A DNA stretch of 63,973 bases, the filler included. It is 12 parts of 12 records of this genome, joined end to end, with 100 filler letters (N's around TTAATTAATTAA, not from the genome) between each part and the next. Parts side by side here need not be neighbours in the genome. Positions count along the whole stretch, not along the records: positions 25,373 to 28,997 come from SRR9188676_3467; 11 more parts are not named here. One strand, given 5' to 3'. A model generated the notes under the pieces. The model worked only from the letters and a program-made list of their open reading frames with translations. It ran no database searches and was not told the origin of the DNA. Both the position numbers and the translations under genes were made by a program. Below, piece after piece: positions 16,666 through 37,884 of the stretch (positions are counted from its first letter, which is position 1; the number at the start of each line of letters is the position of its first letter).

Positions 16666-16898
16666 AGGAGTATATAAGTATGAGTGCTGAATTGCGAATG
16701 CTGAATTATGAGTTTAAGTGTCTGAATATCAACTTATTGGACAATTTGTAAATCTAAACTTATATTGCACGATTACTTAAGTATAAAGAAAGATTAAATA
16801 GACATTACTTTATAAGCATATTTGATAAGTAACTGTTTGATTTTGAGAATTTACAGATAACAGATATACTATTAACTGATAACTTCTTTTTACTTACT

Positions 16899-17522: not shown

Positions 17523-17750
17523 ATTATTTTATTGCCTTGTGTTTTGTTTCTATACTAACAGCTTCGCCTCGGTTTTCATTGCAATTCGTCAGAGAAATCT
17601 TTATTAAAACCTAGACTTCCCTCAACTCAAATATGCTGAATTAGCATACTGGCAATAATTAATACAAAATTATCATAAAATGATTCTAAACAGAGCTTTT
17701 TGTTAACAAACTGATATTATTAGAATTATTTTCAGGTTAAACAGTCAATG

Positions 17751-17758
17751 TACTTTTG
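17751..17758 (+). promoter_or_regulatory. Bacteroidota sigma-A -7 element (TAnnTTTG) upstream of the YdcF-SusCD operon
   Basis: TACTTTTG about 190 nt upstream of the ATG at 17945. Confidence 0.5.
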
Positions 17759-17944
17759 TGTCAGAAAAACGCTTCTGCAAAGTTTAATTTTTCATGAACA
17801 CCTTCCGAGTTGAAAATCAACTCAAAGATACAATCAAACAAGTCTAATAAAAATAGACGCCTTCATTCACTAAACTTTTATCCAATAATGAATAAGTATC
17901 CTCTTTTTGCGGAAGGAGTACTTGTTTGTTGAAATATACAATTG

Positions 17945-19207: not shown

Positions 19208-19212
19208 ATGTT

Positions 19213-19306
19213 AGTTGTGAGTTTTGAATTGTGAATTAAAAATGTAAATAAAAACTCACAATTTACTCATTCGCAATTCACAATTAGAAATTCACAACTC
19301 ACAACT
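19213..19306. repeat. Inverted array of degenerate heptamer repeats (AATTGTG/AATTCAC-like)
   Basis: agttgtg-agttttg-aattgtg-aatt ... aattcac-aattaga-aattcac-aactcac-aact; the outer 18-mers are reverse complements with one mismatch. Confidence 0.75.
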
Positions 19307-19311
19307 TACTC

Positions 19312-20208
19312 ATGAAAAAAGCTATCATTGAAATGAGCGGACTTGTCCTCTCAGGTATTTTGAGTTTTTGTTTTTTATCACAACAAGTTACTGTTAAAGA
19401 CCTTGAATTTAGGCTAAAAAAAGAGTTTTCGATTGATTCTCTTGGTGCTGGGCAAGGCATCAGTATTCAAAACGAAAAAGCCTTTATTTATGGCGACCGT
19501 GAAGTAGGAATGATTCGTGAATATGTCTTGAACAATGATTCACTGATATATACTGGCAAAGAAATGCAGTTGAGTTTGGCGGGAAAAGACGTGATTAATC
19601 ATCCAACGGGCATTGCATTTCATAAAAATCAACCAACTTTTATAGGGAACAGTATCCGCTTAAATCCAGAAGGAACACTTTGGAAAGCCATGATTTATCA
19701 TGTTGATTGGAATGGTTTACAAAAAACAAAAACACTTGATGGCAATTTGCTCAATACGATTGAAGACGATGCTTGTATTCAAGGGACTCGTCCAGAATAT
19801 GTACAATATCAAAACAAATGGTTTGTAGCAACTGCTGATTATGGCAATAAGAAAAACGAAGTACGTTTATACAATCCGTTAGCACTGAAAACTGCTAAAA
19901 AGACTTCTGAAGCAGGCGTACTTTATAAGAAATTTACTTGCAGTCCTTTCGTGCAAAATTTGCTTTGGGTTCCTGAAAAAAAAGTGTTGGTCTTAATTCA
20001 AAACCAAATTGAAGGACGCAGATGGCGATTTACTTTTTTAGATTTTGAAAAATCTTTAGAGACAGGGCACGAAGTAGTTTTAAAAACAATAGACCTCGAT
20101 AAGACAGATGAATTAGAAGGTTTTGCCTTGACCAAAAATATTCAAAAAGGCATTGCAGTTACATCTGCTCGTAAGGCAAACGTGCATCTTGCAAATTTAA
20201 AATGGTGA
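19312..20208 (+). CDS. Hypothetical exported protein, probably beta-propeller
   Basis: Intact 298-aa ORF inside the operon; N-terminal hydrophobic segment; repeated beta-strand motifs (AGQGISI, HPTGIAF, VQNLLW, ELEGFAL). Confidence 0.7.
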   Translation: MKKAIIEMSGLVLSGILSFCFLSQQVTVKDLEFRLKKEFSIDSLGAGQGISIQNEKAFIYGDREVGMIREYVLNNDSLIYTGKEMQLSLAGKDVINHPTGIAFHKNQPTFIGNSIRLNPEGTLWKAMIYHVDWNGLQKTKTLDGNLLNTIEDDACIQGTRPEYVQYQNKWFVATADYGNKKNEVRLYNPLALKTAKKTSEAGVLYKKFTCSPFVQNLLWVPEKKVLVLIQNQIEGRRWRFTFLDFEKSLETGHEVVLKTIDLDKTDELEGFALTKNIQKGIAVTSARKANVHLANLKW

Positions 20209-20247
20209 AAATATAATCCAAATTTCCAATAAATAATCAACAAAAAA

Positions 20248-23200
20248 ATGCAAAAACAAGTACAAAAACAGCTTTGGCTGAGAGCCATGCTGTTAATTGT
20301 AATGGCTGGTACCCAGACAATCGGTACAGTAAAAGCTACTGCTTTTACACAGCAAAAACAAGTGGCGGCGACAATAACAGGAACTGTAACGAACGAGGCG
20401 GGACAAATAATGCCGGGAGTAAACGTTTTTGATAAAACGGCAAAAAAAGGAACAGTAACAGATGCGAATGGGAAATATTCAATTGTTTCTAATGAAGGAA
20501 ATACTTTAGTTTTCAGTTTTGTAGGCTATGAATCGAAGGAAGTTTTAGTGGGAAAATCTTCGCAAATCAATGTCAAGCTTTTTGAAAATTCACAGGAATT
20601 ACAAGAAGTTGTAGCCATCGGTTATTCTACAGTGCGTAAAAGCGACGTAACTGGTGCAATTTCTAGCGTAAAAGCAAAAGAATTGAACCTTACAACACCT
20701 ACAGTTGGACAAGCCTTAGTTGGAAAAGTTGCGGGCGTACAAGTATCACAAGTAAGTGGTGCGCCTTATGTAAGTACCAAAATTCGTGTGCGTGGTGTAG
20801 GTTCAATCAATGCCAGTTCAGACCCACTTTATGTAGTTGATGGCTATCCTGTTGGTAATGATTTATTTATCAATCCAAACGATATTGAATCTATCGACAT
20901 CTTGAAAGATGCAGCTTCGGCGGCGATTTATGGTTCAAGAGCTTCTGGTGGGGTAGTTTTAATTACCACCAAAAGAGGAAAAGAAGGGACAGGTCAGTTT
21001 CAATATGATGTTCAATATGGGTTGAATCAACTAAGTAAAAAAGTAGATTTGCTAAATTCAGAGCAATTTGCACAATTATTAATCGACGGTCATAATAATT
21101 CATATCGTGATTTAATCGTGAATTCAGGAAGAACTTGGAATGATGCCATGTTTTCAGACGATAATGCGACCAGAGTAGCTAAAGTTGGAAATGCTTCTTC
21201 TGTAAGTATTCCTTCAGAATTCTACAATTTTGCCACACAGACATTGATTAAACCAACGATTAATACCGATTGGCAAGATGAATTGTATCAAACTTCTTTG
21301 GCACAGCGCCATAATTTATCATTCTCTGGTGGTAATTCTTCTACTCGTTATGCCATCAGTGGTGGATATTTGAATCAGCCGGGGATTATTAAAAGTACCA
21401 AGCAAGAACGTATCAACTTCCGTGCAAATGTTGATGGGCAAGTAAGTAAAAAACTAAGAGTTTCAGGAAACTTAGCCGTGACGACCAACGAAAATCGTGA
21501 AGTACAAGAAGGACGTTTTAACCAAGGTCCAATTCTTGGCGCTTTGATTTATATGCCATTTTTCAGTGCTTATAACGAAGACGGAAGTTTAAAGAAAAAT
21601 GAAGCAGCATCGAAATCATCTTTATATGCTTATCAAACACTTGAAAACCCAGTTGCTTTGGCAACCGAAACACATATTTCAAGAAAAGGTGTTCGTGGTA
21701 CTTTTAGTGGAAATGCTACCTATCAAATTTTACCAAGTTTATCGGCTAAAGTGAACGTTGGTTTACAAACTTATAACGAAAAGTACGAGTATTATTTGCC
21801 AACTTCATTGAGTAATGGTGCGAATCCTCCGGGTTCTCCACAGTCAATTGCCGCAGCCAACGCTGTAGCGACGACAAGAACTGAAATGGATAAATTAGCT
21901 GAATTTACGTTGAATTATAATGAAAAATTTGGCGAACACAGTATCAGTGCTTTGACGGGTTATACGGCGCAAAAGTTAGATATTGATGTAATTAGCGTAA
22001 CCGCAAAAGGTTTCCAAAACGATAGAATTGAGGAAATTACTGGAAAAGGTGCTGACCCAACTTTATTTACATTGAATGGTGCTACAGGAAAATCTACGGC
22101 TACTTTGCTTTCATATTTGGGGCGTTTGGGGTACAATTATAAAGAAAGATATTTCTTAACGGCTTCTTTCAGACGTGACGCTTCTTCTCGTTTTGGTCCT
22201 TTAAATCGTTGGGGAAATTTCCCATCTGTATCTGCTAGTTGGAATCTTTCGCAAGAACCATTCTATGCTGATAAATTTGGAGACCAAACTTCTATCAAAT
22301 TGCGTGCAAGCTGGGGTTTAAGTGGTAACAACAACATCGGTAATTATAATTATTTACAGACGATGTCTAGCCCCACAGGAGTCGTTTTTGGCAATGGAAC
22401 AATTCAATCTGCGGTATATCCAAACGATATTCGTGACCAACGTTTAGGATGGGAATCTACGTCTCAAATCAACTTTGGAACAGACATTGGTTTGTTCAAC
22501 AACCGTGTTTTTGTGATGGCGAATTATTATGTTTCTGAATCTTCAGATTTGTTGTTTAACCAACCTGTTTCGGCTGTTGCGGGAGCTTCTACGATTTTAA
22601 CAAACCTAAGAAACTCTAAAGTACAAAACAAAGGTTTGGATTTACAGATTGATACTCGTTTGGTTCAAACGGGCGACTTGAAAGTAAATTTAAGCGGTAA
22701 TATTTCAATCAACCGAAATAAAGTATTAGACCTTGGTGGTGCAAATGCCATTTTCACTGCAGGTGCTGAACGTTCTTATATCACTCACACTACGCAAGAA
22801 GGTCAGCCAATCGGTATGTTCTATGGTTTTAAAGTGAAAGGAATGGTTCGCCAGTCGGACATGGATAATTTAGCGGCGGATAATTTGGTATATAATGCAG
22901 CAACGCAATCTTTTCCAAAAGATTATAAAATCAAAGGTCCAGCACGTTCTACTGCATCAAGTAATCCTTTGAAACCGGGAGACCTTTATTTTGAAGACGT
23001 AAATGGCGATGGCGTGGTAAACGATTTAGACAAAACAGTAATCGGTACACCTTACGCTAAGTTTACTTATGGTTTTGCACTTTCGGCAAGCTACAAAAAC
23101 TTTGATTTGAGTTCATCTTTCAACGGTTCTTATGGCAACCAAGTATTAGACGGACAAGATTATTATGTTTATAACATGGAAGGTTCTGGAAATCAGTACG

Positions 23201-23568
23201 CTTCGGTCGTAAATCGTTATCGTTCAGAAACGGAACCGGGCGACGGAACGGTTTATCGTGCATCTCGTGGTGGAACCCAAAGTAATAGTACTCGTCTTTC
23301 AAGTTTTTATTTACAAGATGGTTCATTCTTCCGTTGCACTAATCTTACGCTTGGTTTTACAGTACCAACGCAATGGTTAGGGAAACAAAAATCAGTATCC
23401 AATGCTAGAATTTACATAGGAATTGATAATGCTTTCACCATTTCAAAGTACAAAGGCTATAACCCAGAAGTTGATTACAACAATGGAGCAAACCTTACTC
23501 CGGGTGTTGATTACGGAAAATATCCTTTGATGAGAGCCTACAACATCGGTGCAAAATTGACATTCTAA
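20248..23568 (+). CDS. susC: SusC/RagA TonB-dependent outer-membrane transporter
   Basis: ITGTVT...GTVTDANGKYSI, plug motifs IRVRGVGSINASSDPLYVVDG and DIESIDILKDAASAAIYGSRASGGVVLITTKRG, C-terminal GAKLTF. Confidence 0.96.
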   Translation: MQKQVQKQLWLRAMLLIVMAGTQTIGTVKATAFTQQKQVAATITGTVTNEAGQIMPGVNVFDKTAKKGTVTDANGKYSIVSNEGNTLVFSFVGYESKEVLVGKSSQINVKLFENSQELQEVVAIGYSTVRKSDVTGAISSVKAKELNLTTPTVGQALVGKVAGVQVSQVSGAPYVSTKIRVRGVGSINASSDPLYVVDGYPVGNDLFINPNDIESIDILKDAASAAIYGSRASGGVVLITTKRGKEGTGQFQYDVQYGLNQLSKKVDLLNSEQFAQLLIDGHNNSYRDLIVNSGRTWNDAMFSDDNATRVAKVGNASSVSIPSEFYNFATQTLIKPTINTDWQDELYQTSLAQRHNLSFSGGNSSTRYAISGGYLNQPGIIKSTKQERINFRANVDGQVSKKLRVSGNLAVTTNENREVQEGRFNQGPILGALIYMPFFSAYNEDGSLKKNEAASKSSLYAYQTLENPVALATETHISRKGVRGTFSGNATYQILPSLSAKVNVGLQTYNEKYEYYLPTSLSNGANPPGSPQSIAAANAVATTRTEMDKLAEFTLNYNEKFGEHSISALTGYTAQKLDIDVISVTAKGFQNDRIEEITGKGADPTLFTLNGATGKSTATLLSYLGRLGYNYKERYFLTASFRRDASSRFGPLNRWGNFPSVSASWNLSQEPFYADKFGDQTSIKLRASWGLSGNNNIGNYNYLQTMSSPTGVVFGNGTIQSAVYPNDIRDQRLGWESTSQINFGTDIGLFNNRVFVMANYYVSESSDLLFNQPVSAVAGASTILTNLRNSKVQNKGLDLQIDTRLVQTGDLKVNLSGNISINRNKVLDLGGANAIFTAGAERSYITHTTQEGQPIGMFYGFKVKGMVRQSDMDNLAADNLVYNAATQSFPKDYKIKGPARSTASSNPLKPGDLYFEDVNGDGVVNDLDKTVIGTPYAKFTYGFALSASYKNFDLSSSFNGSYGNQVLDGQDYYVYNMEGSGNQYASVVNRYRSETEPGDGTVYRASRGGTQSNSTRLSSFYLQDGSFFRCTNLTLGFTVPTQWLGKQKSVSNARIYIGIDNAFTISKYKGYNPEVDYNNGANLTPGVDYGKYPLMRAYNIGAKLTF

Positions 23569-23632
23569 ATGAATTTTTCAGGAAGTAATCAATATTAAAA
23601 TCCTGAAATTCAATTAAACAAGATTCAAAAAA

Positions 23633-25159
23633 ATGATAAAGAAATTAATAACATTACTTGTTTTGGCGACAGCCCTTGCAAGTTGTAGTGATGATTTTGT
23701 GCTACAAACAGATCCAAATTCAGTAGCCGCTTCAGATTATTTCCGTACAGATAACGATGTCCTTCAAGCGGTAAATGGCGTGTATCAATCGCTTCGTGGT
23801 GGAAATAATATTGGTGAAAATAGCGGACTTTACACCGACGAGCGTTCTGATGATGCAGGTAGAAATGATAACCAATCGAATGCTGGAGAACCTTTCCAAT
23901 TCAATGATTTTTCGATTTTACCAAGTAATACTTATTTAAAAAGTCACTGGCTTTCATTGTATCAAACCATTGCACGTTGTAATCAGGTTACTTCAAACAT
24001 TGATAAAGTAACTTTTACTACACCAGCAAATAAGGGAATTTACAATGCAGAAGTGAAATTTGTTCGTGCCATGATTTACTTTCATTTGGTAAGAAAATGG
24101 GGAGATGTGCCATTGGTTACAAAGCAATTAAATTCAACCGACGATGTAATTGCGAATACTTTCCGTGAGAAAAAAGAGAAAGTTTACGAACAAATTATTG
24201 CTGATTTGAAAGAAGCAGTAGCCAGTGGTTTACCGAATCATCAACCTGTTACAGAAAAAGGTAGAGTATCAAAAGCGGCAGCTAATGCTTTGTTAGGACA
24301 AGTATATTTAACGATGGCAACTACTTTAGACCAAGCCAATCGTGCTAGTAATTTAGCGAATGCAAAAACATATTTGACGGCTGCTTATAACATGAAAACC
24401 TTTACAGATTTAAAGGATATTCCATATACTGATGTATTTGATGTGACTAAAAAATCGACGAATGCAGAAATCATTTTCCAGATTGTTAACAAACAAGGCG
24501 ATATCACCTATTCATCTTCAATCGCTGCGAATAATCAAGCGAAAGGTGAAACAACGAATTCACTAAAACCAAGTAATGGCGTAGGCGGAAATGTAAAACA
24601 AGATTTAGTGAAAGAATACGAAATCAATGATTTACGCAAGGATTTCTCGATAAAATATGCGAATGATGCTACCGTAAAAGATTGGTACATTACTAAATTC
24701 AGAGATGTAAGTGCTTTGGCAAGTGCAAATGGTTATGGCGGAAATGATTGGCCTTTAATCAGATATGCTGATGTGATTTTGATGTTGGCAGAAGTAAATA
24801 TGTATTTGGGCGATGAAACGACTGCAATTCAATTCTTGAACCAAGTGCGTGAAAGAGCTAAATTACCTACTTATGAAGTGATGAAAAATAATACAGAATA
24901 TGCTACAAAGTATCCAACGTTGAAATTGGCAATTCTTCATGAACGAAGAGTTGAATTAGCTTTTGAACACCACCGTTGGTTTGATTTACTTCGTTTCTTT
25001 ACACCAACAGAATTGGTTACTTATATTCAAAGTAAGTCACAGTCAGACTATGGAACAGCTAAAGTTTCCAACTTTGGTTTGAAAGATTATCTTTTCCCAA
25101 TTCCATTTGATGAATACAAATTGAATCCAGAGAAAATGTATCAGAATACTGGTTATTAG
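23633..25159 (+). CDS. susD: SusD/RagB surface lipoprotein
   Basis: LASC lipobox; YFHLVRKWGDVPL, IRYADVILMLAE, ERRVELAFEHHRWFDLLR, QNTGY end; directly follows susC. Confidence 0.95.
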   Translation: MIKKLITLLVLATALASCSDDFVLQTDPNSVAASDYFRTDNDVLQAVNGVYQSLRGGNNIGENSGLYTDERSDDAGRNDNQSNAGEPFQFNDFSILPSNTYLKSHWLSLYQTIARCNQVTSNIDKVTFTTPANKGIYNAEVKFVRAMIYFHLVRKWGDVPLVTKQLNSTDDVIANTFREKKEKVYEQIIADLKEAVASGLPNHQPVTEKGRVSKAAANALLGQVYLTMATTLDQANRASNLANAKTYLTAAYNMKTFTDLKDIPYTDVFDVTKKSTNAEIIFQIVNKQGDITYSSSIAANNQAKGETTNSLKPSNGVGGNVKQDLVKEYEINDLRKDFSIKYANDATVKDWYITKFRDVSALASANGYGGNDWPLIRYADVILMLAEVNMYLGDETTAIQFLNQVRERAKLPTYEVMKNNTEYATKYPTLKLAILHERRVELAFEHHRWFDLLRFFTPTELVTYIQSKSQSDYGTAKVSNFGLKDYLFPIPFDEYKLNPEKMYQNTGY

Positions 25160-25244
25160 AAAAAAGTATAAAGAGGCATCCTGAATTTCTATTTATAATA
25201 AAGCGTTTCCGAAGATTATTGAAGTTTTAAATTTATTCTTGCCC

Positions 25245-25272
25245 TTACTTTTTGCCTTGATGCAAAAAGTAA
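25245..25272. repeat. Perfect 11-bp hairpin (REP-like or terminator) at the contig break
   Basis: TTACTTTTTGC-CTTGAT-GCAAAAAGTAA; the contig ends exactly at the arm. Confidence 0.6.
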
Positions 25273-26243: not shown

Positions 26244-27350
26244 CTTGAATTTCGAGGTAGTAGCGTCGTTTCTCCTCGCTAACCTTGAACAGGCGGGCTT
26301 TCAGAGTCTGGGCAACTGGCGTACCGGATTCTGGGATATAGAGAAAAAGGGAGAAAGGTTCAGAACCTACAACATGCCAACAGAGACAATACATAAGGGT
26401 ACATACCAATAGCGTCTTTGACATTCTTTCGGTCCTCAGCATTGAAATTGAGTTCTTTGTGCTTGGCAGTGTCGCGTTGGACGTGCCCAAAAAAATTCGT
26501 GAGGGTATTGAACCCGTGAAGTGTCGCCTCATGTCCACACAACGGGCAAATGATCTCGATACCTTAACACATAATCATCGCAGCCCAATGCCTTCTTGAA
26601 CATCTCCCTTCGCTTTTTCAGGACTGCCCGAGCATCCTTGTCCAAGGACGCCGCGAAAGCATCTCGTGAGGGTTCATCACGCGCGGTCTTCCATCTAAAA
26701 TAATATAGCACCGCGAGAGGGGAGAGACATCATGGTGTGTTGTGAGACATAGGGATGAGGAAAGACAATGAATGCAAGAGGATTGAAATATTGACGCACT
26801 TTGCGAGCAGGTCTTGTGACGCTTTGAAGCCAGCGACGCTCGGTCGACTGTTGGTCGATGCATTTAAGAATGCTGTGACGACGGAGATCCAGGGGAAAGT
26901 GGAGCAGCAGGTGATGAACCACCAGTTCCTTCATTCTCGGTGCCACTATTCGAGTCATTGTCCATTTGGCCATAAGTTCTTTTAGAACCGCGCAATGCTG
27001 GTGGCTGGCTCTCTCTCACAGGACTGTCCTTCGGTCTATAGGGATTTGACAGAGGAGATTGTGACAATCGGAGCTTGGATCTGATGAACAGATAGAAAAT
27101 ACCTTGAAAACAGATGCATGTCACCGGACTTGCATTTCTTTAAGAATCTCGTCCAATGATGTCCGTTGACAATTGCAAATCGATCACCGTCCACGCGATC
27201 AGAGTACTCGAGATCGAATTTTGAAGCGTCATTGTCCAGCAAGACACCTTTGGCATTCTCTAGGCCATCCACAGGAAGATCTTGAGGGTCCTCTTCGGTT
27301 ATTCGGTCCCGATGATGAAAGATGAATCCTTTATCTTGAGAGGAAGTCAT
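26244..27350 (-). pseudogene. Disrupted spliced gene with a C2H2-like zinc finger
   Basis: Exon-like blocks with GT-AG borders and the motif ICPLCGHEATLHGFNTLTNFFGHVQRDTAKH. No stop-free model was found: ORFs 26864-27124, 26618-26863 and 26360-26542 share one frame broken by TAA/TGA/TAA, and an alternative model needs two frameshifts. Confidence 0.45.
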
Positions 27351-27521
27351 ATGCAGCTGTCAAGCTAATTGTTTTTCGCGATCAAGAATCACATCAACCA
27401 ATCGAGTCGGCCGACTCGGAGACTGGAGGAAGTGTTGAGAAAGGGATGTTTATTCGAAAAACCTAAATTCTCCATAAACCGAGACAAAAAACAAAAAAAT
27501 ACGGGGAAGAAAAGAACCACA

Positions 27522-28584
27522 TTAGTGAGGGTCAGAGTCAGAGCTGTCAGAGTCAGGTTTAAAAAGATCCACACGTCCGATGTCCTTGAAATATTTCTTG
27601 AAACGCTTCGGACTCGGTCCCATATAGACCACGACATGGCCGTACGGGGACTGGCCCCGTTCTCCACTTTCACTCTCAAAGGAGTACTGATCATACAGAG
27701 TGCACATGTGATGGTTGAGCAGAATGGTCTTGAACCACTTATATCCGGCAGCAGCCTTAATGAGCAGAACGGCGGCCGTAAAGTGCCCCTTTGCGAACTC
27801 GCTTTCGGCTTTAGCTATGAATAATCCTTGAATACTCACATTATTTAGAGTCCCGTACGGCGGATTCAAGAACACTCGTGGGGTAGGTCTCGTGGTTGAG
27901 CCCCAATCACATGCTAATCCGTTCTGTTCCTCTGTGATATACTGGACTGCGTCTACTCGCGTGTTCGCTTCGTCATCGCTGGCTGGGTCCAAATCGATCC
28001 TGCCGCCCAGCACTCTCCTGGCCTTGTCAAGCAGGATGTCAGGTGTGTACCACTTGTTTGACTGCACATCAAGATTACATCCATATATTTTTTCCAGAAT
28101 GATTGTCCCAAATAAGCAAGAGCTGCACCCTGAGAGTGCGATTAAAAAGTTAATCTCGACTTACATTCGAAGAAAGAAACACGTCTCGACGGTGCTGGGA
28201 CAGACAATAGTCTACTTGATCTTTTCCAATTTGAGTTGCCTGCAGAAGATACTCTGAAATCTCTGCAAGCTTGTTCCTGGACCAATCTTTGCCATATAAT
28301 GGTCTGATGACCCATTCTGTGATCTCACTCATTCTGCTTTCGAGCCCAATTTCTATACAGAATTGCACAGCTTTCATCAGTCTGCGTGCATGTTTAAGTT
28401 TCAAAAAATTGGTTTTGGTTATCCATTCATCCATCGATTTCATGCCATCGAGAAGAAAAAGTTCCTTATCCCTGATATTCAACAAAATCTGACCCGCAAC
28501 TAGATTACTTCTCACTTTCAGTTCTTTCAGTGTCTCCTTCATCTCCTTGAATTCTGCCTTTCTCGAACTCATGCTTGCCATCAT
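27522..28584 (-). CDS. ParB-like HTH + phage-type Dam DNA N6-adenine methyltransferase fusion, 2 exons (319 aa)
   Basis: Exon 1 28584-28165, intron 28164-28062 (GTAAGT...GTGCAG, phase 0), exon 2 28061-27522. Splicing restores VFLSSN|SNKWYTP, followed by IDLDPAS, EQNGL..DW, VFLNPPYG, AVLLI and KWF (PF05869-type Dam motifs). Exon 1 has GQILLNIRDKELF...SMDEWI...HARRLMKA...EWVIRPL, a ParB-type HTH pattern. Confidence 0.88.
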
Positions 28585-29097
28585 TGTTTGTTTACAGATC
28601 CTGTTGTTCTGGAAGTTCCGTCACCTCAAAGGAACGAAATTTCGAGAAGGAGGATCAGAGTCGGTCGACTCGATTGATTGATGTGGTTTGCGTCCATCCC
28701 CTGCGAAAAATCTCTATTTTTAACGCAACGTTCTCGCCAAGGAATCGCCAAGGAACCAAGGTCGGAACATTTCTCTGATTTAACTTTTCTTTGAAATCAT
28801 CTCTTTTTATGTGTAGAGAGAGCCGTTCCGTTTCCGTGATTCGTCCCGACCCCCTCAATGTGCGAATCTTCCCTGGGAATAAACTGAGGGTGTGCCCGAT
28901 CAGTTTCCTATCATGTTTCCTCTCTCCACATGTTCTCGAATTCTACACCCTTCAATCCGACTGCATTTGATCTCATTCTATCTCTTTTCTCCCAGTGNNN
29001 NNNNNNNNNNNNNNNNNNNNNNNNNNNNNNNNNNNNNNNNNTTAATTAATTAANNNNNNNNNNNNNNNNNNNNNNNNNNNNNNNNNNNNNNNNNNNN

Positions 29098-29127
29098 CGG
29101 TCGAAAAACTAATTTCGACCGCTTTTT
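29098..29127 (+). terminator. Intrinsic terminator hairpin
   Basis: CGGTCGAAA-AACTAA-TTTCGACCG followed by CTTTTT; lies just downstream of the minus-strand iorB-like gene. Confidence 0.7.
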
Positions 29128-29205
29128 ATGATTGTAAAATTTGGAATGGCTCATGTGCACTAATTTTAATATCAGAAGCTTTTAGTCCATTCGCTAATTA
29201 TTGAC

Positions 29206-31452
29206 TTACAATTTTGTTCCTTCAACAGTAAATGGCTGATTGTAATACCTTTTGCCCGTAGATTTATACAAAGCATTCGCTACTGCACCAAATACAGGAG
29301 GGAAGGGAGGTTCGCCAAGCCCAGTTGGGTCAATGTCGTTTTGTACAAAATGTACGTCAATTTTTTTAGGAGCTTCATTATGACGAATAATGCGGTAATT
29401 ATGGAAATTACTTTGTTCTGCCGCACCGTCTTTATGCGTTAAAGCGCCATAAAATGAATTGCCAATGCCGTCAACTACTGCACCTTGTACCATATTGATT
29501 GCCGCATCAGGGTTTACGACAACGCCACAATCTATAGCACTGGTTACTCTTTCAACATAAGGCTGACCGTCACGAATCACCATATCAACCACATGACCTG
29601 CATAAGAAGCATGGCAGAAGTAAGCGGCTACACCTCGTTTTTTTCCACTATTTTCTGGTTTGCCCCAGCCAGATTTTTCTCTGAGTAATTCCAATACGCC
29701 TGCATATCTATCAGCGTCATATTCATTGTTTTTGCCTACTGGATTTTCTTTAGCACGTTTCAACAAATCAAGACGGAAGGCGATTGGGTCTTTGCCCATA
29801 GCTTCTGCTACTTCATCCAAGAAAGATTGTTCTGCGGCTGCATTAAAGTTGGAACGAGGTGCACGGAATGCACCAATGGTAATATTAGAAGGAATTTCCC
29901 AGCCTTCGGCTAAGTAATTGTCAACAGCACCAGCAGGGAAACGATTGGCATGAATAGGGTTTTCAGGAATACCACCGCCTTTTACATGAAACGCAATCAG
30001 ATTTTTATTTGCGTCTAAAGCCGCACGGTAAGTAGCCGTGTACATCGGGCGATAGATTCCGTAACTCATATCGTCTTCACGAGTGTAAATCAATTTTATC
30101 GGTGCTTTCAATCTTTGAGAGATGCGAGCTGCCTCATATACATATTGTGCGTAAGCTCTACGTCCAAAACCACCGCCCATACGAGTCATCTGAATTTCGA
30201 TTTTATCAGCAGGTAAATTCAAAATTTTTGAAAGCGTAGGCTCCATCCAACCGGGTGCTTGTATTGGTCCAGCTACCAAAGCCTTACCTTCTGAAACATG
30301 GGCAAAGAAATTCATTGGCTCCATGGTATTGTGTGCCAAAAACGGAGCATTATAAGTACGTTCGATAATCTGAGCAGCATTTTTAAAAGCCGTTTCTGGG
30401 TCGCCATCTTTTCTTAATTGCTGTGCAGGTTTTTTGGCGTATTCAGCCATTAATTCCATTTGGCTACTTGTTGTTTCTAACCTTCCCGGAACGGTTACTT
30501 CTCTTTTACCGCCTCGTCCCATCATGGTTTCTTTTATATCGCCAGCAGCTTCCCATTGTACTTTTATTTTTTTACGGGCGTTCATTACTTCCCAAGTAGA
30601 TTTGCCTACAATGGCAATCATTTCGTTGAAAGTACGAGTATCAAAACCCGCTTGTTCAAAACCATCGTCGTATAATTTAAAGCTAAAAATATCTTTAATG
30701 CCCGACATTTTTAGGGCTTGCGAAGCATCGAAAGATTTTAATTTCATACCAAATGCAGGCGGATGCTGAATCATGGCAATCAGCATTCCTTCCACATGAT
30801 AATCAATTCCGAAGAGTGGCTTACCTGTAACTACTTTTAATCCTTCAGTATTTTTCTTTGAATTTCTTACAATCGAAAAGTCTTTTGGAGCTTTCAATTT
30901 CACATCTTTCGGAACGGGAATGGTAGCCGCTTTATTCGCCATTTCACCATACTTCGCAGATTTACCACTTGAATGTGATAAAACGCCCGCTTTCGTCGTG
31001 ATTTCACTGGCAGGAACGCCCCACGTTTGAGCCGCCGCTTCAATAAGCATTTGTCTTGCCGATGCTCCTGCGTTTCTCAAAGGCTTCCAGTACATTCTTA
31101 CTGAGTTACTACCGCCAGTAAATTGTGCCCCTAATTTCACGCTATCGTGTGGACCCATTTCTACGACTACATTCTTCCAATCTACGTCTAATTCCTCTGC
31201 CACCATCATCGGTAGCGAAGTCATTACATTCTGACCAAATTCTGGGTTTGGACATATAATTTTGATAACATTATCAGGAGTAATTTTAATATATCCGTTG
31301 AGTTCATTCCATTGTTCAGGCAAATTCATCGCAGCCATTTTGTCGGCGGTTTGAGCATTTGCGAGCCAACTGAAACTCAGCATTAATCCACCGCCTGCAA
31401 GAACGGAAGACTTTAAGAACGAACGACGATTTTGTGTATTTGTATTTTCCAT
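29206..31452 (-). CDS. iorB: Xanthine dehydrogenase family molybdopterin-binding subunit (IorB-like), copy 1
   Basis: RRSFLK twin-arginine-like motif, EFGQNVMTSLPMMVAEELD, RMGGGFGRR, DCGVVVNPD, GLGEPPFPPV. ATG taken at 31452. Confidence 0.9.
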   Translation of the reverse strand: MENTNTQNRRSFLKSSVLAGGGLMLSFSWLANAQTADKMAAMNLPEQWNELNGYIKITPDNVIKIICPNPEFGQNVMTSLPMMVAEELDVDWKNVVVEMGPHDSVKLGAQFTGGSNSVRMYWKPLRNAGASARQMLIEAAAQTWGVPASEITTKAGVLSHSSGKSAKYGEMANKAATIPVPKDVKLKAPKDFSIVRNSKKNTEGLKVVTGKPLFGIDYHVEGMLIAMIQHPPAFGMKLKSFDASQALKMSGIKDIFSFKLYDDGFEQAGFDTRTFNEMIAIVGKSTWEVMNARKKIKVQWEAAGDIKETMMGRGGKREVTVPGRLETTSSQMELMAEYAKKPAQQLRKDGDPETAFKNAAQIIERTYNAPFLAHNTMEPMNFFAHVSEGKALVAGPIQAPGWMEPTLSKILNLPADKIEIQMTRMGGGFGRRAYAQYVYEAARISQRLKAPIKLIYTREDDMSYGIYRPMYTATYRAALDANKNLIAFHVKGGGIPENPIHANRFPAGAVDNYLAEGWEIPSNITIGAFRAPRSNFNAAAEQSFLDEVAEAMGKDPIAFRLDLLKRAKENPVGKNNEYDADRYAGVLELLREKSGWGKPENSGKKRGVAAYFCHASYAGHVVDMVIRDGQPYVERVTSAIDCGVVVNPDAAINMVQGAVVDGIGNSFYGALTHKDGAAEQSNFHNYRIIRHNEAPKKIDVHFVQNDIDPTGLGEPPFPPVFGAVANALYKSTGKRYYNQPFTVEGTKL

Positions 31453-31474
31453 TTCCAATCAGGTTTAAGGTTAA

Positions 31475-31930
31475 TTACTTTTTTGCAGCAGCTTTAATCG
31501 CCTCTTTGATACGCAAGTAAGTACCACAACGACAAATATTCCCGCTCATATAGTTATCAATATCTTCATCGGAAGGATTTGGATTTTCTTTCAATAAAGC
31601 CGTAGCACTCATGATTTGTCCAGCCTGACAATAGCCACATTGAGCCACGTCGTGTTCAATCCAAGCTTTTTGTACTGGGTGAGTTCCGTTGGCAGATAAG
31701 CCCTCGATAGTAGTAATCGCTTGTTTACCCACTGCAGATACTGGCAAACTACAAGAACGAACAGCAGTGCCATTCAAATGAACAGTACAAGCACCACACA
31801 TTGCCATTCCGCAACCAAATTTAGTTCCCGGCATATTAAGATGATCTCTTAAAACCCAAAGAACTGGCGTTGATGGGTCAACATCTACTAGTTGTGTTTT
31901 CCCGTTTATTTTTAGAGAATATTTTGCCAT
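31475..31930 (-). CDS. iorA: (2Fe-2S)-binding subunit (IorA/CoxS-like)
   Basis: [37 protein letters not shown]. Confidence 0.95.
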
Positions 31931-32041
31931 AATGTTGTATTAATTTTATTTAAAACTGAATGAAGATATATAAATAAACTCATTTAAAATAATATTTTTC
32001 TGATAAACCCCATGGTTTTTAAATACTAATTTCTTCAGAAT

Positions 32042-34285
32042 TTACAAGTTGTCGCTAAAAGGTTGATTGTAAAAACGCTTGCCCGTTGCTTTGTATAAGG
32101 CATTTGCCAAAGCCGCATACACTGGCGGATAAGCAGGTTCGCCCATACCCGAAGGGTCGAGTGTATTTTTTACAAAATGTACTTCTATTTGTTTGGGGGC
32201 TTCATTGTGGCGAATCATACGATAATTGTGAAAATTATTCGCATCTGGAACGCCTTTCGTCAATGTCATTTTTCCATACATGGCTGCTCCAAGAGCATCC
32301 ACAATTCCACCCTCAGCCATATTTTTAGCAGCATCGGGGTTGATAACAATACCGCAATCAATTGCACACCATACTTTATTGATAACGGGCGTGCCGTCTT
32401 TTATTTCTAAATCAAGAACATGAGCAGCATAAGAATCATGACAGAAATAGGCTGAAAAGCCTAATTTTTTGGTTGCTTTGATACTTTCCCAATTGGCTTT
32501 TTCTTTGACTAATTCTAATACTTTAGCAAAACGTTCTGGTTCATATTCATTGTTTTTGCCTACTGGTTTTTCTTTGGCTCTATTCAATAAAGCTAAACGA
32601 AAAGCAATTGGGTCTTTTCCTGCTGCTTCGGCCACTTCATCCAAAAATGATTGTTCTGCCGCTGCCATAAAATTAGAACGTGGTGCTCGGTACGAACCCA
32701 CTGTAATATTTGAATCAATCGTAAAATCTTCTGCTAAATAATTATCGACTGCCCCAGCAGGAAAACGATTGGGATATAAAGGAGATTCGGGCGTTCCACC
32801 TGCTTTTACATGAAAAGCGATTAGATTATTGTCGGCATCTAATGCCGCCCGAAAATATGCTGAATACGTAGAGCGATAGATTCCCGAAGTCATATCGTCT
32901 TCACGAGTATAAAGTAATTTTACGGGTGCTTTTACTTTTTGTGAAATCAAAGCGGCTTCTATCAACCAATGGGCGTAAGAACGGCGACCAAAACCACCGC
33001 CCAAGCGAGTCATTTTAATATCTATTTTCTCTAAAGGCATTCCCAGACGAGCCGAAAGGGCTTGTTCTGTAAATTCAGGTTTTTGTAATGGACCAGAAAG
33101 TTCGGCTTTTTCATCCGTCACATGGGCAAAGAAATTCATAGGTTCCATGCAATTATGTGCAAGATATGGTGCGTTATAAGTACGCTCTATGGTTTTTGGG
33201 GCACTTTTAAAAGCCGTTTCTACATCACCATCTTTGCGACGAACTGTAGCTGATTGAGCCATTCGTTCAGCCAATTTAGTTTTATGTTCAATCGTGTCTT
33301 CTAAGCCAGCAGGAATTTTCTCAACTACTTTTCTACCCAACATATTACGGTTTTGGGTATAACTTTCTATGGGTTGCCAATCTATTTTCAAGGCTTTTTT
33401 TGCTTGCATTACTTCCCAAGTACTGTTGCCGACAACTGCGACTACTTCGTTGAAAGTGGTAGTATCAAAAAAAGTTTTTTCGTAGCCTTCATTGAAAATT
33501 TTAATTGGGAAAACAGCCTTAACGCCCTTCATTTTGCTAATGACAGCTTCGTTTTGTATCGACTTAAATTTCAAACCAAAAGCAGGTGGATGCACTATCA
33601 TGGCGATTTGCATTCCCTTAACTTGGGTATCAATACCGAATAAGGGTTTGCCTGTTACGATTTTCTTTAAATCAACATTACCTTGACTTTTCCCAATAAT
33701 TTTGAAATCTGGAATGCTTTTTAACTTTACCTCTTTCGGAACAGGAATTTGTGCCGCAGCCGTTGCCATCTCTCCATAGTTGGCTGATTTTCCTGAATTT
33801 TTATGATACAAAACACCCGATTCAGTACTTATCTCATCCACAGGAACATTCCATTGTTTGGCAGCAGCTTCCTTAAGCATTTGGCGAGCCGTAGCACCAG
33901 CCAAGCGTAGCGGTTGCCAGCTTAAATGTATCGCCTGACTTCCTCCAATAAATTGTCGAGTAAAATGTTTGGTATCTAAATCTGCTTGTTCGATAATGAT
34001 TTTAGAAAAATCAACGTCTAATTCTTCTGCCACAATCATCGGCATTGACGTTTTTACACCTTGCCCGCCTTCGGGATTGGGCGACATGATTTTGATGACA
34101 TTATCGGCAGTAATTTTTACAAAGCCATTGAGTTCATTCCAACCAACAGGTAAGACTGTGTTTTTCTTTGGTCCAATCGTTTTAAAACTTGAAAAACCAA
34201 CAATACTTAGCATCAATCCACCGCCTGAAAGGGCAGATGCTTTTAGAAATGAACGACGACTATGAGTTGTTTTTGATGTTTCCAT
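32042..34285 (-). CDS. iorB: Xanthine dehydrogenase family molybdopterin-binding subunit (IorB-like), copy 2
   Basis: SRRSFLK, EGGQGVKTSMPMIVAEELD, RLGGGFGRR, GMGEPAYPPV; clear paralog of 29206-31452. Confidence 0.9.
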   Translation of the reverse strand: METSKTTHSRRSFLKASALSGGGLMLSIVGFSSFKTIGPKKNTVLPVGWNELNGFVKITADNVIKIMSPNPEGGQGVKTSMPMIVAEELDVDFSKIIIEQADLDTKHFTRQFIGGSQAIHLSWQPLRLAGATARQMLKEAAAKQWNVPVDEISTESGVLYHKNSGKSANYGEMATAAAQIPVPKEVKLKSIPDFKIIGKSQGNVDLKKIVTGKPLFGIDTQVKGMQIAMIVHPPAFGLKFKSIQNEAVISKMKGVKAVFPIKIFNEGYEKTFFDTTTFNEVVAVVGNSTWEVMQAKKALKIDWQPIESYTQNRNMLGRKVVEKIPAGLEDTIEHKTKLAERMAQSATVRRKDGDVETAFKSAPKTIERTYNAPYLAHNCMEPMNFFAHVTDEKAELSGPLQKPEFTEQALSARLGMPLEKIDIKMTRLGGGFGRRSYAHWLIEAALISQKVKAPVKLLYTREDDMTSGIYRSTYSAYFRAALDADNNLIAFHVKAGGTPESPLYPNRFPAGAVDNYLAEDFTIDSNITVGSYRAPRSNFMAAAEQSFLDEVAEAAGKDPIAFRLALLNRAKEKPVGKNNEYEPERFAKVLELVKEKANWESIKATKKLGFSAYFCHDSYAAHVLDLEIKDGTPVINKVWCAIDCGIVINPDAAKNMAEGGIVDALGAAMYGKMTLTKGVPDANNFHNYRMIRHNEAPKQIEVHFVKNTLDPSGMGEPAYPPVYAALANALYKATGKRFYNQPFSDNL

Positions 34286-34455
34286 GTTCGGGTTGAGATA
34301 TTAAATAATACTCTATTTTACTACCAAATGATGCCTTGCGTTTGGATTTTGAAAAGCTAAATTTTCGTCAAATATATCCTTGTGTTTGAACAAGAAGATG
34401 AATTAAAGATAATTTTAGACCAACATCAATATATTCCCACCAACGACAATAATCT

Positions 34456-34920
34456 CTATTTCTTAATCTGATGCGTATCTCGAACACTACTGAAGGTCAA
34501 GGCTAACATCTTCCACGCTTTGCCTTGTTTTTGATAGACTTCTGTTACAGTAAATTCTACTTTAGCTTCATTTCCTCTAACGATGGATTCAAGTGTTATT
34601 CTATTCCAAACAATGGCGGTTTTTCCAGAAACTTCAATCGCAGAATCATGGATAGTAGCTTTTTTATACCAAATACTTCCTGTTTTAATGATTTCAAGCT
34701 CCTCATCTTTTTTCCAAGTACCACTCATGTGAACAAATTTTGATTTATCATCAAATAATTTATCCAACTTTTCTACATCTTTATCAGCCATCCATTGCCA
34801 TTTGTCTTTGGATAATTGTAATACTGTTTGCTCTTCACTAGTATTTTGACTGCTCTGTTGAGCAAAGATTAATTGTACACTAACGATTAAAAGTACGAGA
34901 CTAAAAAATGAAGATTTCAT
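34456..34920 (-). CDS. Secreted NTF2-like (DUF4440) protein
   Basis: Signal peptide; KWQWMADKD..KL..LF, FVHMSG, TEVYQKQGKAWK. Confidence 0.8.
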   Translation of the reverse strand: MKSSFFSLVLLIVSVQLIFAQQSSQNTSEEQTVLQLSKDKWQWMADKDVEKLDKLFDDKSKFVHMSGTWKKDEELEIIKTGSIWYKKATIHDSAIEVSGKTAIVWNRITLESIVRGNEAKVEFTVTEVYQKQGKAWKMLALTFSSVRDTHQIKK

Positions 34921-34953
34921 ATTTTTTTTTATTTAAAAGATTATTCTGTGGTA

Positions 34954-35066
34954 CAAAAGTAGATACTTTAATGACAGAGAATAGTATAAAAATTACTGCT
35001 TTTTCTACCATTTTCACTGATTGAAATCTGTGCTTTAAAATAGTTTTAAGAGAATGAGTACTTTTG
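34954..35066. promoter_or_regulatory. Divergent Bacteroidota promoters (two TACTTTTG -7 boxes)
   Basis: TACTTTTG on the - strand at 34954-34961 and on the + strand at 35059-35066. The latter implies the AraC start is the ATG at 35084 rather than 35054. Confidence 0.6.
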
Positions 35067-35083
35067 TTTCAAATCATAAAAAA

Positions 35084-35998
35084 ATGGAAATTTTATATCC
35101 CATCAATAACATCAGTAAGTATAATGCTGATAATAATCACAAAACACTTCATCCTTTGGTAAGTGTGATAGATTTTTCAAAAGCTCCAGAAAGAAATTGG
35201 GGTACAGAAGCCAAAACGATTAAGTTTCAGTACGGGCTATATTGTATTTACTTGAAAGACGTGAAGTGTGGCGATATTCGTTACGGAAGAGATTATTATG
35301 ACTATCAGGCGGGTACTTTGGTGTTTTTTGCGCCAGGGCAAGTAATGGAAGTAGATAATTTGGGTATAAGTTATCAGCCTGTGGGTTATGGATTGGTTTT
35401 TCATCCAGACTTAATACATGGAACCATTCTAGCCAAAACTTTCAGTGATTATAATTTCTTTAGTTATAAAACCAACGAGGCATTGCACATTTCTGATGAT
35501 GAACGCCAATTGGTGTTAGACCTTTTTGCCAAAATTGAATTAGAATTAAAACAGCCCGTTGATAAGCATAGCAAGAAACTTATTGCTTCAAACATAGAGC
35601 TATTTCTTAATTATTGTGAGCGTTTTTATGACCGACAATTCATTACAAGAGATAATGTTAACAGAGGAGTTTTAACAAGATTTGAAGACTTGCTAAATAG
35701 CTATTTCCTATCAGAAAAACCGCAAAGTATTGGTGTGCCTTCAGTGGCTTATTGTGCAGATACGCTACATTTATCTGCGAACTATTTTGGTGATTTAATA
35801 AAAAAAGAAACAGGCCAAACTGCAAAAGAATACATCCTGAACAAAACGATTGAAATTGCTAAAAATAAAGTATTTGAAGGCGATAAAACCGTCAATGAAA
35901 TTGCCTACGAATTAGGTTTTAAATATCCGCAACATTTTACGAGATTGTTTAAACAACGAGTAGGATGTACTCCAAATGAATATAAGAATTTGAATTAA
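35084..35998 (+). CDS. AraC-family transcriptional regulator
   Basis: HPLVSVIDFS, YGRDYYDYQAGTLVFFAPGQ, C-terminal HTH LSANYFGDLIKKETG...EIAYELGFKYPQHFTRLFKQRVGCTPNEY. Confidence 0.95.
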   Translation: MEILYPINNISKYNADNNHKTLHPLVSVIDFSKAPERNWGTEAKTIKFQYGLYCIYLKDVKCGDIRYGRDYYDYQAGTLVFFAPGQVMEVDNLGISYQPVGYGLVFHPDLIHGTILAKTFSDYNFFSYKTNEALHISDDERQLVLDLFAKIELELKQPVDKHSKKLIASNIELFLNYCERFYDRQFITRDNVNRGVLTRFEDLLNSYFLSEKPQSIGVPSVAYCADTLHLSANYFGDLIKKETGQTAKEYILNKTIEIAKNKVFEGDKTVNEIAYELGFKYPQHFTRLFKQRVGCTPNEYKNLN

Positions 35999-36010
35999 CC
36001 ATAAAATACG

Positions 36011-36946
36011 ATGAAAAACTTAATCTCAACTATGAAAAACTATGCGTTTCCAAAGTCCTTATGTGTTATTGTTTTACAATGGCTTTTGCTAATCAATACT
36101 ACGTTTGCACAAACAGACAATCCAGTATTAAAGCTGTTTCCCAACGGTACAGAATTACATGGAAATATTGCTTATCAAAATGATACGCTCAAAAAGCATT
36201 TATTAGACATTTATTTACCTGCGAACACAAAAGGAAATATTCCATTTGTGGTATTTATTCATGGCGGTGGATGGCTTGTGAACGACAAGTATGCAGACAT
36301 TGGGTACATGGGAAATACGGTTTCGGCTTTGATTAATAACAATATCGCAGTGGCGTCTATTGATTATAGATTTGCTTCGCAAGCTCAGTTTCCTGCTTTG
36401 ATTCAAGATTGTAACCAAGCACTTGCATTTCTTTGTAATAATGCCGAAAAATATCATTTAGATAAGAATCGTATTGCCATTATGGGTTTTTCGGCGGGTG
36501 GACATTTGGCATCGCTTCAAGGTTTGTCGAATAACAATAAGGTAGCTTCATTTTTTAATGGCAATCATGCACAAGTATTTAATATCAAAGCAGTGGTTGA
36601 TTATTATGGACCTTCTGAACTTACTTCATTAGGAAGTAGCGAAGACCCAAAAGCACCAGAAGGGATTTTATTAGGAGCAAGCCCTATTGCCAGACCCGAC
36701 TTGGCAAAAATTGCCAGTCCTGTAACGTATGTAGATAAAAACGACCCCCCATTTCTGATTTTTCATGGAGAAAAAGATAATCTCGTAAACAATCGCCAAT
36801 CAAAATTATTGAGTGGTTGGTTGACATCATTAGGAGTAAAGAACGAACTCATCATTGTCAAAGATGCTCCTCATTTCGGAAAAATGTATGACATAGAAGA
36901 GTTCAAAACAAAAGTAATTTCATTTTTAAAAGAAGCTCTTCGATAA
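36011..36946 (+). CDS. Secreted alpha/beta hydrolase (HSL-like esterase/lipase)
   Basis: HGGGW oxyanion motif, GFSAGGHLA nucleophile elbow, HGEKD and H completing the triad. Confidence 0.92.
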   Translation: MKNLISTMKNYAFPKSLCVIVLQWLLLINTTFAQTDNPVLKLFPNGTELHGNIAYQNDTLKKHLLDIYLPANTKGNIPFVVFIHGGGWLVNDKYADIGYMGNTVSALINNNIAVASIDYRFASQAQFPALIQDCNQALAFLCNNAEKYHLDKNRIAIMGFSAGGHLASLQGLSNNNKVASFFNGNHAQVFNIKAVVDYYGPSELTSLGSSEDPKAPEGILLGASPIARPDLAKIASPVTYVDKNDPPFLIFHGEKDNLVNNRQSKLLSGWLTSLGVKNELIIVKDAPHFGKMYDIEEFKTKVISFLKEALR

Positions 36947-36955
36947 GAAGGGTAG

Positions 36956-37834
<879 letters not shown>

Positions 37835-37841
37835 GTGTTTT

Positions 37842-37875
37842 TATTCCACGAATTCATTCGTGAATTCGTGGAATA
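37842..37875. terminator. Perfect 15-bp hairpin with TTCG loop between convergent genes
   Basis: TATTCCACGAATTCA-TTCG-TGAATTCGTGGAATA. Confidence 0.75.
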
Positions 37876-37884
37876 TTATCACTT

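Follow-up and report, generated by a model that had tools for sequence, protein, structure and literature searches.

A phage-type adenine methyltransferase gene with a putative DNA-binding domain and a candidate spliceosomal intron on a eukaryote-like contig

Introduction

DNA adenine methylation in eukaryotes is mostly attributed to enzymes of the MT-A70/AMT1 type. The survey of Iyer, Zhang and Aravind (2016; PMC4738411) places a 'chlorophyte-type Dam' clade in its Group 2 of adenine methyltransferases, and describes fusions that join such a Dam domain with a helix-turn-helix (HTH) domain of ParB type in chlorophytes and chytrids; the family also has prokaryotic relatives in phage loci. Here we describe a locus from a 63,973-base stretch of DNA (the whole of which is referred to as the window) where two minus-strand open reading frames (ORFs), separated by 103 nt, appear to form a single gene encoding an N-terminal HTH-like domain and a C-terminal PF05869 Dam domain. 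The ParB-HTH-fused chlorophyte-type Dam family is the closest known kind, pairing an N-terminal ParB-type HTH with a Group-2 (M.EcoKI/M.TaqI-like) adenine methyltransferase in a eukaryote, as the present locus appears to do. The fusions in green algae and early-diverging fungi that the first-pass annotation of the window had mentioned correspond to those of the 2016 survey. The comparison with this family is by description, and the parts of the survey used here mention neither an intron nor a flanking repeat.

That annotation had also held PF05869-type enzymes to be mostly phage or prokaryotic, a view that is outdated. DIRS retrotransposons carry a methyltransferase domain detectable with PF05869, together with inverted terminal repeats (PMC3783388), and a 2026 preprint (10.64898/2026.05.21.726589) reports 10,030 eukaryotic DAM-domain proteins, mostly from one retrotransposon clade, a set whose DAM domain may correspond to PF05869. 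The preprint, which scanned raw ORFs, further distinguishes three non-viral clades of horizontal gene transfer (Chlamydomonadales, Carpediemonadida and Haptophyta-Heterokonta) and two virus-associated groups. The three non-viral clades could include relatives of the present gene; neither ParB nor HTH nor intron appears as a term in the main text of the preprint. These publications are drawn on in part, and in the portion of the PF05869 literature covered an intron-joined HTH-Dam architecture was not encountered.

The locus resembles the DAM genes of DIRS and DAM-LTR elements, adintoviruses and giant viruses in combining a Dam-type domain, with its conserved Asn-Pro-Pro pocket, with an apparently eukaryotic genome. 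Unlike the retrotransposon DAM genes, it has an HTH-like domain as partner, and no reverse transcriptase, RNase H or tyrosine recombinase domain was found on its contig. MT-A70/AMT1 enzymes would write the same mark, N6-methyladenine (6mA), but are a different family, as exon 2 matches PF05869 and not PF05063. The Phytophthora DAMTs are N6-adenineMlase-domain proteins (PMC6211444), again a different family, and were set aside.

Results

The methyltransferase domain

The window is composed of 12 contigs joined through N44-TTAATTAATTAA-N44 spacers and is not one molecule. The methyltransferase gene is located on the contig at 25373-28997 (3,625 bp, GC content 0.447), and its features are listed in Table 1. 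Exon 2 alone scored 51.5 bits against the PF05869 Dam profile (cutoff 28.1 bits, E 1.3e-13, profile positions 11-109 of 169) and matched the 'DNA methyltransferase' family phrog_111 at E 5.6e-29, which upholds the phage-type Dam assignment made in the first-pass annotation. The score against NCBIfam TIGR01712 (phage_N6A_met) was 44.9 bits, below the cutoff of 97.05; exon 2 is related to that family but is not an equivalog of it. All 12 columns that are invariant in a 12-sequence Dam family alignment (A1) are kept, including D23, D25, P26, N66, P67, P68 and G70. The motifs also occur in the order typical of PF05869, with an N-terminal WYTP helix followed by the S-adenosylmethionine (AdoMet)-binding IDLDP and the catalytic NPPY/F. 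The DLDPAS and NPPY motifs named in the earlier description are intact. These results support the assignment of exon 2 as a phage-type PF05869 Dam domain with its predicted cofactor and catalytic motifs in place, and the product would be expected to methylate adenine at N6.

Table 1 Features of the methyltransferase locus, in window coordinates
Feature	Position	Strand	Description
Inverted repeat, upstream arm	28655..28688	.	34 nt, 70 nt before ATG; near-palindromic core GAGTCG-AC-CGACTC
Exon 1	28165..28584	-	ATG at 28584; 140 codons; ends ...FLSSN; predicted all-helical N-terminal domain
Putative spliceosomal intron	28062..28164	-	103 nt, GTAAGT...GTGCAG, phase 0
Exon 2	27522..28061	-	179 codons and TAA; starts SNKWYTP; predicted PF05869 Dam-type N6-adenine methyltransferase domain
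WYTP motif	28052-28041	-	within exon 2
DLDPAS motif	27995-27978	-	within exon 2
NPPY motif	27866-27855	-	within exon 2
AATAAA	27449..27454	-	67 nt 3' of stop; possible polyadenylation signal
Inverted repeat, downstream arm	27387..27420	.	34 nt, 101 nt after stop; perfect 16-bp palindrome CGAGTCGGCCGACTCG

An AlphaFold (AF2) model of exon 2 (mean predicted local distance difference test score, pLDDT, 88.4) was compared with solved structures using Foldseek. The best matches were PCIF1/CAPAM (E 8.8e-6), the type I M subunits 3ufb and 2okc (approximately E 6e-4), M.TaqI (E 2e-3) and M.EcoKI (E 3.7e-3), in keeping with a class I methyltransferase fold like that of M.EcoKI, M.TaqI and PCIF1. PCIF1, M.EcoKI and M.TaqI are prototypes of Group 2 of Iyer et al. 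(PMC4738411). No solved structure matches exon 2 by sequence, and in the ESM Atlas the clusters most like it, taken as a lead only, are tailed-phage PF05869 families.

Relatives of exon 2 carry the domain encoded by exon 1

Evidence linking the two ORFs came from relatives of exon 2. Among 80 metagenome Dam loci, the ORF of 40 extends N-terminally from the Dam domain by 100 aa or more, the remainder being stand-alone (18), intermediate (2) or undetermined (20). When exon 1 was compared with 45 such extensions, matches over approximately 90 residues were found with loci L036 (E 3.3e-5) and L075 (E 8e-4). A profile was then built from the N-terminal domains of nine relatives, leaving out the window sequence. 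Searched against the 692 ORFs of the window, it found exon 1 as the sole match (E 3.3e-6, 22.6 bits), the next ORF being at E 1.1. With this profile the real exon 1 sequence scored 20.8 bits, compared with a maximum of 8.5 bits in 1,000 shuffles. In 8 of the 9 relatives the Dam domain lies downstream in the same ORF, while in the ninth (L099) it is in the adjacent ORF.

A search of a large protein collection with the N-domain alignment returned 720 longer proteins. Among the best-scoring 120 of these (P0016-P0135), PF05869 is present in 92 and PF05063 (MT-A70) in 17, so that 109 of the 120 carry an adenine methyltransferase domain; PF07505 (gp37) and PF14216 occur in 2 each, and 7 have no Pfam domain. 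A second profile, made from these 120 N-domains and again without the window sequence, once more matched exon 1 alone of the 692 ORFs (E 1.1e-5). The suggestion that the two ORFs fit one two-domain architecture is thereby borne out by profiles to which the locus itself contributed nothing. The median length of the 120 proteins is 322 aa, compared with 319 aa for the spliced product, and the linker between the N-domain and the conserved Trp has a median of 44 aa (range 33-101), compared with 47 here by match coordinates. The spliced product is colinear with 8 full-length fused relatives, and the junction is free of gaps in 7 of the 8.

The fused prokaryote and phage proteins (among them L036, of 326 aa, and P0016-P0135) thus share the domain order of the present product, at similar size and linker length. 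They are continuous ORFs with no intron, and their identity to the present sequence is 15-22% in the N-domain and approximately 35-40% in the Dam domain. The two-domain architecture is the norm for hundreds of prokaryote and phage relatives, and the evidence from relatives of exon 2 appears decisive for reading the locus as one gene. The same N-domain is found with PF05869, MT-A70, PF07505 and PF14216 partners and would seem to be an exchangeable unit for DNA targeting, one for which Pfam has no model. The label 'methyltransferase-associated N-terminal DNA-binding domain' for exon 1 is well supported.

The junction divides a conserved motif

The exon boundaries proposed in the first-pass annotation, the 103-nt phase-0 GTAAGT...CAG interval and the 319-aa length of the product are all correct. 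The two exons join in frame across the interval, and the two ORF frames are one base apart, as a 103-nt phase-0 intron requires. If the interval stays in, the frame of exon 1 runs into a stop 4 codons on. The GC content of the interval is 0.38, compared with 0.46 for the exons.

All 22 in-frame, stop-free GT..AG joins possible between the two ORFs were scored on a Dam profile that excluded the window sequence. The proposed join ranked first with 164.3 bits, and the next join had 162.9 bits. A model starting at the GTG at 28067 had 161.7 bits and exon 2 alone 159.9 bits. The exon 2 ORF contains no ATG ahead of the catalytic motifs, and no Shine-Dalgarno-like motif was found before the alternative GTG.

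The position of the interval is more telling. In the family the consensus h-x-S-S-x-S-x-x-W-Y-T-P is contiguous, and the motif said to be rebuilt by the join, FLSSN-SNKWYTP, agrees with it. The 103 nt divide this motif, with L-S-S supplied by exon 1 and S-N-K-W-Y-T-P by exon 2. Of 79 fused relatives, 62 have a Ser at position -5, upstream of WYTP; in the present gene this residue comes from exon 1 alone. A frameshifted linker would not account for a motif divided in this way between the exons, and nor would two independent genes. Removal of an interval with GT-AG boundaries thus restores both the frame and the S-S-x-S..WYTP motif, and the location within the motif is a stronger argument for an intron than the profile margin. 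Splicing of the 103-nt interval is therefore proposed from the sequence, as a prediction.

Composition places the contig with eukaryote-like sequences

At least three compositional groups are present in the window, namely nine eukaryote-like contigs, two bacterial ones and one with a GC content of 0.535. The nine, including that of the gene, have GC contents of 0.42-0.48, sparse ORFs and similar tetranucleotide usage, while the contigs at 14879-25272 and 29098-47361 are bacterial-looking, with a GC content of approximately 0.35 and dense coding. The GC-normalised tetranucleotide correlation (r) between the gene's contig and its 8 companions is 0.84, within the range of 0.78-0.86 obtained when each companion is itself left out and compared. 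None of 63 Dam-bearing prokaryote or phage control loci exceeds an r of 0.68, and for the 18 controls with GC contents of 0.40-0.50 the maximum is 0.65. The 1,302-bp gene region alone has an r of 0.59, which is also the median for 48 pieces of matched length cut from the companion contigs, and bacterial pieces reach at most 0.36. The grouping of the gene's contig with the eukaryote-like contigs is supported.

Recognisable genes were found on 5 of the 8 companion contigs, encoding HMG-CoA synthase, ADD_ATRX, zf-C6H2, Ribosomal_L1 and deaminase domains. The HMG-CoA synthase gene (minus strand, 52304-53051) provides an intron comparable to that proposed here, on a contig of matching composition: its Pfam N domain extends over two frames, and removal of the 56-nt intron at 52814-52759 (GTAATA...CAG) restores the protein sequence between them. 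A second intron of 87 nt (53051-52965) is probable in the same gene. The ADD_ATRX cysteine-rich domain, a chromatin-reader module, is encoded by the ORF at 53859-54425 on the plus strand of a companion contig.

The remainder of the gene's contig lacks phage-like dense coding, and its other ORFs gave no Pfam match below E 0.1. Patterns of prokaryotic promoters and terminators occur at chance level only. The bacterial genome G001 (99% complete), which has 25% of the window's words in common, gave no match to this contig.

Fold of exon 1

An AF2 model of exon 1, made with a ten-sequence alignment, has nine helices, a pLDDT of 84.5 and a predicted template modelling score of 0.75. The best Foldseek match is the Spo0J-parS complex (4umk_C, E 0.57, probability 0.84), followed by ParB, Noc and SopB at E 2-7. 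In VIA, a search independent of Foldseek, the top rows are Raf1 (Z 8.5 and 8.3), Spo0J (1vz0_A, Z 7.8 over 109 residues) and Raf1 again (7.0), and the next are the ParB DNA-binding domain (6s6h_B, 6.5), KorB (1r71_A, 6.3, and 8qa8_A, 5.7) and SopB (3mkw_B, 5.6). ParB-family DNA-binding domains thus make up 5 of the top eight rows, superposed over 99-115 residues, although for helical proteins a Z below approximately 13 may reflect a common arrangement.

Sequence comparisons gave fainter signals. The partition protein family borfam_49 matched exon 1 at E 0.0047 (17.4 bits, under a cutoff of 60), and no ParB-related Pfam or NCBIfam model scored above its cutoff. A profile search of PDB sequences with exon 1 returned chance PI3K rows only (E at least 0.34), and a viral fold library yielded nothing at E <= 0.001, the top entry being a phage protein named 'Activating signal cointegrator' (E 0.09). 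Among relatives, weak DUF3102 matches were seen in L036 (E 0.015) and in 1 of 10 members of alignment A3 (E 0.0045). The Atlas look-alikes of exon 1 are phage hypothetical-protein clusters at 0.95; one cluster at 0.93 has PF01672 in 16% and PF11300 in 10% of its members.

The ParB-like HTH label of the first-pass annotation is thus sustained in part. The fold matches to Spo0J, ParB, KorB and SopB (Z 5.6-7.8) speak for it, whereas the absence of a Pfam match, the higher rank of Raf1 and the Foldseek E of 0.57 do not. We regard 'ParB/KorB-like HTH' as a reasonable, moderately supported description of the modelled fold. Unlike ParB, Spo0J, KorB and SopB, exon 1 has no ParB_N (CTPase/nuclease-like) domain and no Pfam ParB match, and unlike ParB systems the locus has no partition ATPase or parS context. 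Among the Dam loci, L058 pairs a true ParB_N domain with Dam. The metagenome protein P0003 (735 aa) has three tandem Dam-type domains, and its N-terminal region is named 'ParB family chromosome partitioning protein' by its source.

Relatives of the Dam domain are numerous and distant

Ten relatives comparable in length, plus 2 that are longer, came from the protein collection (at most 41% identity). Confirmed Dam loci numbered 365 in metagenome contigs (at most 42%), 219 in genomes from many prokaryotic phyla (up to 43%, the 43% being over residues 1-70 only) and 286 in viral contigs (at most 40%). Relatives are thus numerous but distant, none exceeding 43% identity in the collections searched. 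The clusters to which P0005, P0006, P0011 and P0003 belong carry no informative names. In a Dam tree with 231 tips the present domain is on a long branch, at a patristic distance of at least 2.8 from every tip, and neither a supported sister group nor a donor was found.

An inverted repeat brackets the gene

The methyltransferase gene is bracketed by two 34-nt arms of an inverted repeat that are 88% complementary. A 19-nt core pattern occurs twice in the window, only in the arms, where 0 occurrences are expected (100 shuffles). No matches to the repeat motif were found in the viral contigs, the 8 companion contigs hold no comparable repeat (only two pairs at 72-73%), and the 8 prokaryotic fused homologues examined have no gene-bracketing inverted repeat. 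By eye, no target-site duplication is present at the repeat ends, and the arms fold no better than shuffles (z -0.4 and -0.7). Readings of the repeat as a transposon, a hairpin signal or a conserved operator are unsupported, given that target-site duplication, stable hairpin and counterparts are all missing. The repeat could be a binding site of the HTH domain, a cassette boundary or a regulatory element. It is the one feature of the locus without precedent in the portion of the literature covered.

Neighbouring sequences

Directly 3' of the methyltransferase gene, two minus-strand ORFs at 27350-26864 can be joined by taking out a 67-nt GTATTT...TATAG interval at 27102-27036. The resulting 139-aa product is free of stops and has a tail rich in Ser, Pro and Gly; it matched no Pfam family, and no homologue was found for it. 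In the region 26360-26729 (minus strand), ORF ends coincide with GTATGT donor-like sites (approximately 26406 and 26244), and a stretch rich in Cys and His (CPLCGH...) hints at a further small gene with introns. Across the spacer, the bacterial contig with a GC content of 0.36 carries a 750-aa ORF at 29206-31458 (minus strand) that by eye is like a molybdopterin-dependent oxidoreductase with a twin-arginine-like N-terminus. The contig at 57518-59608 (GC 0.535) has a Ser/Pro/Gly-rich ORF of approximately 620 aa, and its tetranucleotide usage differs from that of the eukaryote-like group (r 0.45) and of the bacterial group. Rfam identified nothing in the window.

Discussion

The best explanation, to which we assign a probability of roughly 0.7, is that a eukaryote carries an adenine methyltransferase gene of lateral origin, with two domains and an intron. 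A two-exon nuclear gene would encode the 319-aa protein, the HTH domain of which would anchor or target the enzyme on DNA while the Dam domain would move a methyl group from AdoMet to adenine N6. The two-domain gene would most likely have come in one piece from a phage or prokaryote, long enough ago for its composition to have become host-like and for no relative to be above 43% identity. The 103-nt spliceosomal intron would have been gained later, inside the S-S-x-S..WYTP motif, where the methyltransferase domain begins. Acquisition en bloc is suggested by the architecture and not by phylogeny, because the Dam tree does not group the present domain with the bearers of the N-domain.

Several observations weigh against this explanation. 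The splice margin is small, at +1.4 bits over the next join and +2.6 bits over the GTG start, and by eye no clear branch-point consensus is present near the acceptor. No Pfam family was found for exon 1, and a search of 1.84 billion protein representatives gave it no match at E <= 0.001; a phmmer search with default filters against 9,950 ORFs of 240 loci gave nothing at E <= 0.01, and with the filters off the best match, L036, had an E of only 0.039. The fold scores on which the ParB label is based are middling, with Raf1 ranking above Spo0J. Support in the Dam tree is weak (0.59-0.82), and the domain is not grouped with N-domain bearers. Bacterial contigs are also present in the window, and the gene's contig is only 3.6 kb long. 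Finally, a natural two-gene arrangement exists: in L099, from a prokaryotic genome, the N-domain (2312-2980) and the Dam domain (3001-3459) are separate adjacent ORFs.

The last points bear on the view that the contig is phage or bacterial DNA with separate genes, one for an HTH protein (stop at 28152-28150) and one for a 181-aa Dam enzyme starting at the GTG at 28067, and no intron. Both domains are typical of phages, and stand-alone Dam proteins of approximately 170-200 aa are common, as in the 18 of 80 metagenome loci and P0005-P0007; the split in L099, the 2.6-bit deficit of the GTG model and the bacterial contigs of the window would also fit. We nevertheless consider this view improbable. 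The composition of the contig matches the eukaryote-like contigs and exceeds all 63 controls, the GTG has no Shine-Dalgarno-like motif before it, prokaryotic promoter and terminator patterns are at chance, and the rest of the contig shows neither phage-like dense coding nor Pfam families below E 0.1. Two genes would also leave a conserved L-S-S at the C-terminus of the upstream protein without reason, and the boundaries of the interval are exactly GTAAGT and CAG.

Equally unlikely, in our estimate, is a decaying relic in a eukaryotic genome, with an unspliced 103-bp insertion and at most a truncated, HTH-only protein. Read-through stops after 4 codons, the Dam branch is long, and the nearest relative, at 43% identity over residues 1-70 only, leaves none close enough to show purifying selection. 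Against this, the 319 codons contain no stops or frameshifts, every invariant family residue is kept, and the insertion has consensus splice boundaries in phase. The fully host-like composition suggests long residence, over which an ORF not under selection would probably have decayed.

The least probable source of the Dam domain, by a small step, is a eukaryotic mobile element or endogenised virus (DIRS, DAM-LTR, adintovirus or giant virus) in place of direct transfer from a phage or prokaryote: PF05869 does detect the DIRS domain, DIRS elements have inverted terminal repeats (PMC3783388) and an inverted repeat brackets the present gene, and a majority of the 10,030 DAM-domain proteins from eukaryotes are linked to retrotransposons, 46.1% being without detectable transposable element features (10.64898/2026.05.21.726589), but the retrotransposon reading is disfavoured because no transposable element domain is on the contig, the partner is of prokaryote type and the look-alikes are of phage type. 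Specifically, 8 other ORFs contain no reverse transcriptase, RNase H, integrase or tyrosine recombinase family, on a contig of only 3.6 kb, beyond which such parts may lie; the N-terminal partner is a domain associated with prokaryote and phage methyltransferases and not part of a polyprotein; the nearest look-alike clusters are tailed-phage PF05869 families; a search for longer proteins gave 2 relatives, neither a polyprotein; and the repeat arms are only 34 nt long.

For the laterally derived gene that we favour, a more speculative extension concerns the repeat. The 1,302 bp at 27387-28688 might be a self-contained cassette in which the HTH domain recognises the palindromic cores bracketing its own transcription unit, with the methyltransferase recruited to, or regulated from, the borders. 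Such a cassette would parallel, in a eukaryote, a site-directed system of ParB/parS type, here linked with adenine methylation, and might move as one piece. We regard it as a long shot.

As ParB-HTH-Dam fusions have already been described and eukaryotic DAM domains are widespread, the locus would be a further, divergent case of a known fusion, and its value is limited by the earlier descriptions in chlorophytes and chytrids. The complete two-domain architecture, the predicted intron within a conserved motif, the host-like composition and the intact catalytic residues together would allow the acquisition as well as the gain of the intron to be read from the sequence. Were the enzyme active and targeted by its HTH domain, 6mA would be site-directed rather than chromatin-directed. 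Independent acquisitions of phage-type Dam enzymes represent other routes by which a eukaryote could write 6mA.

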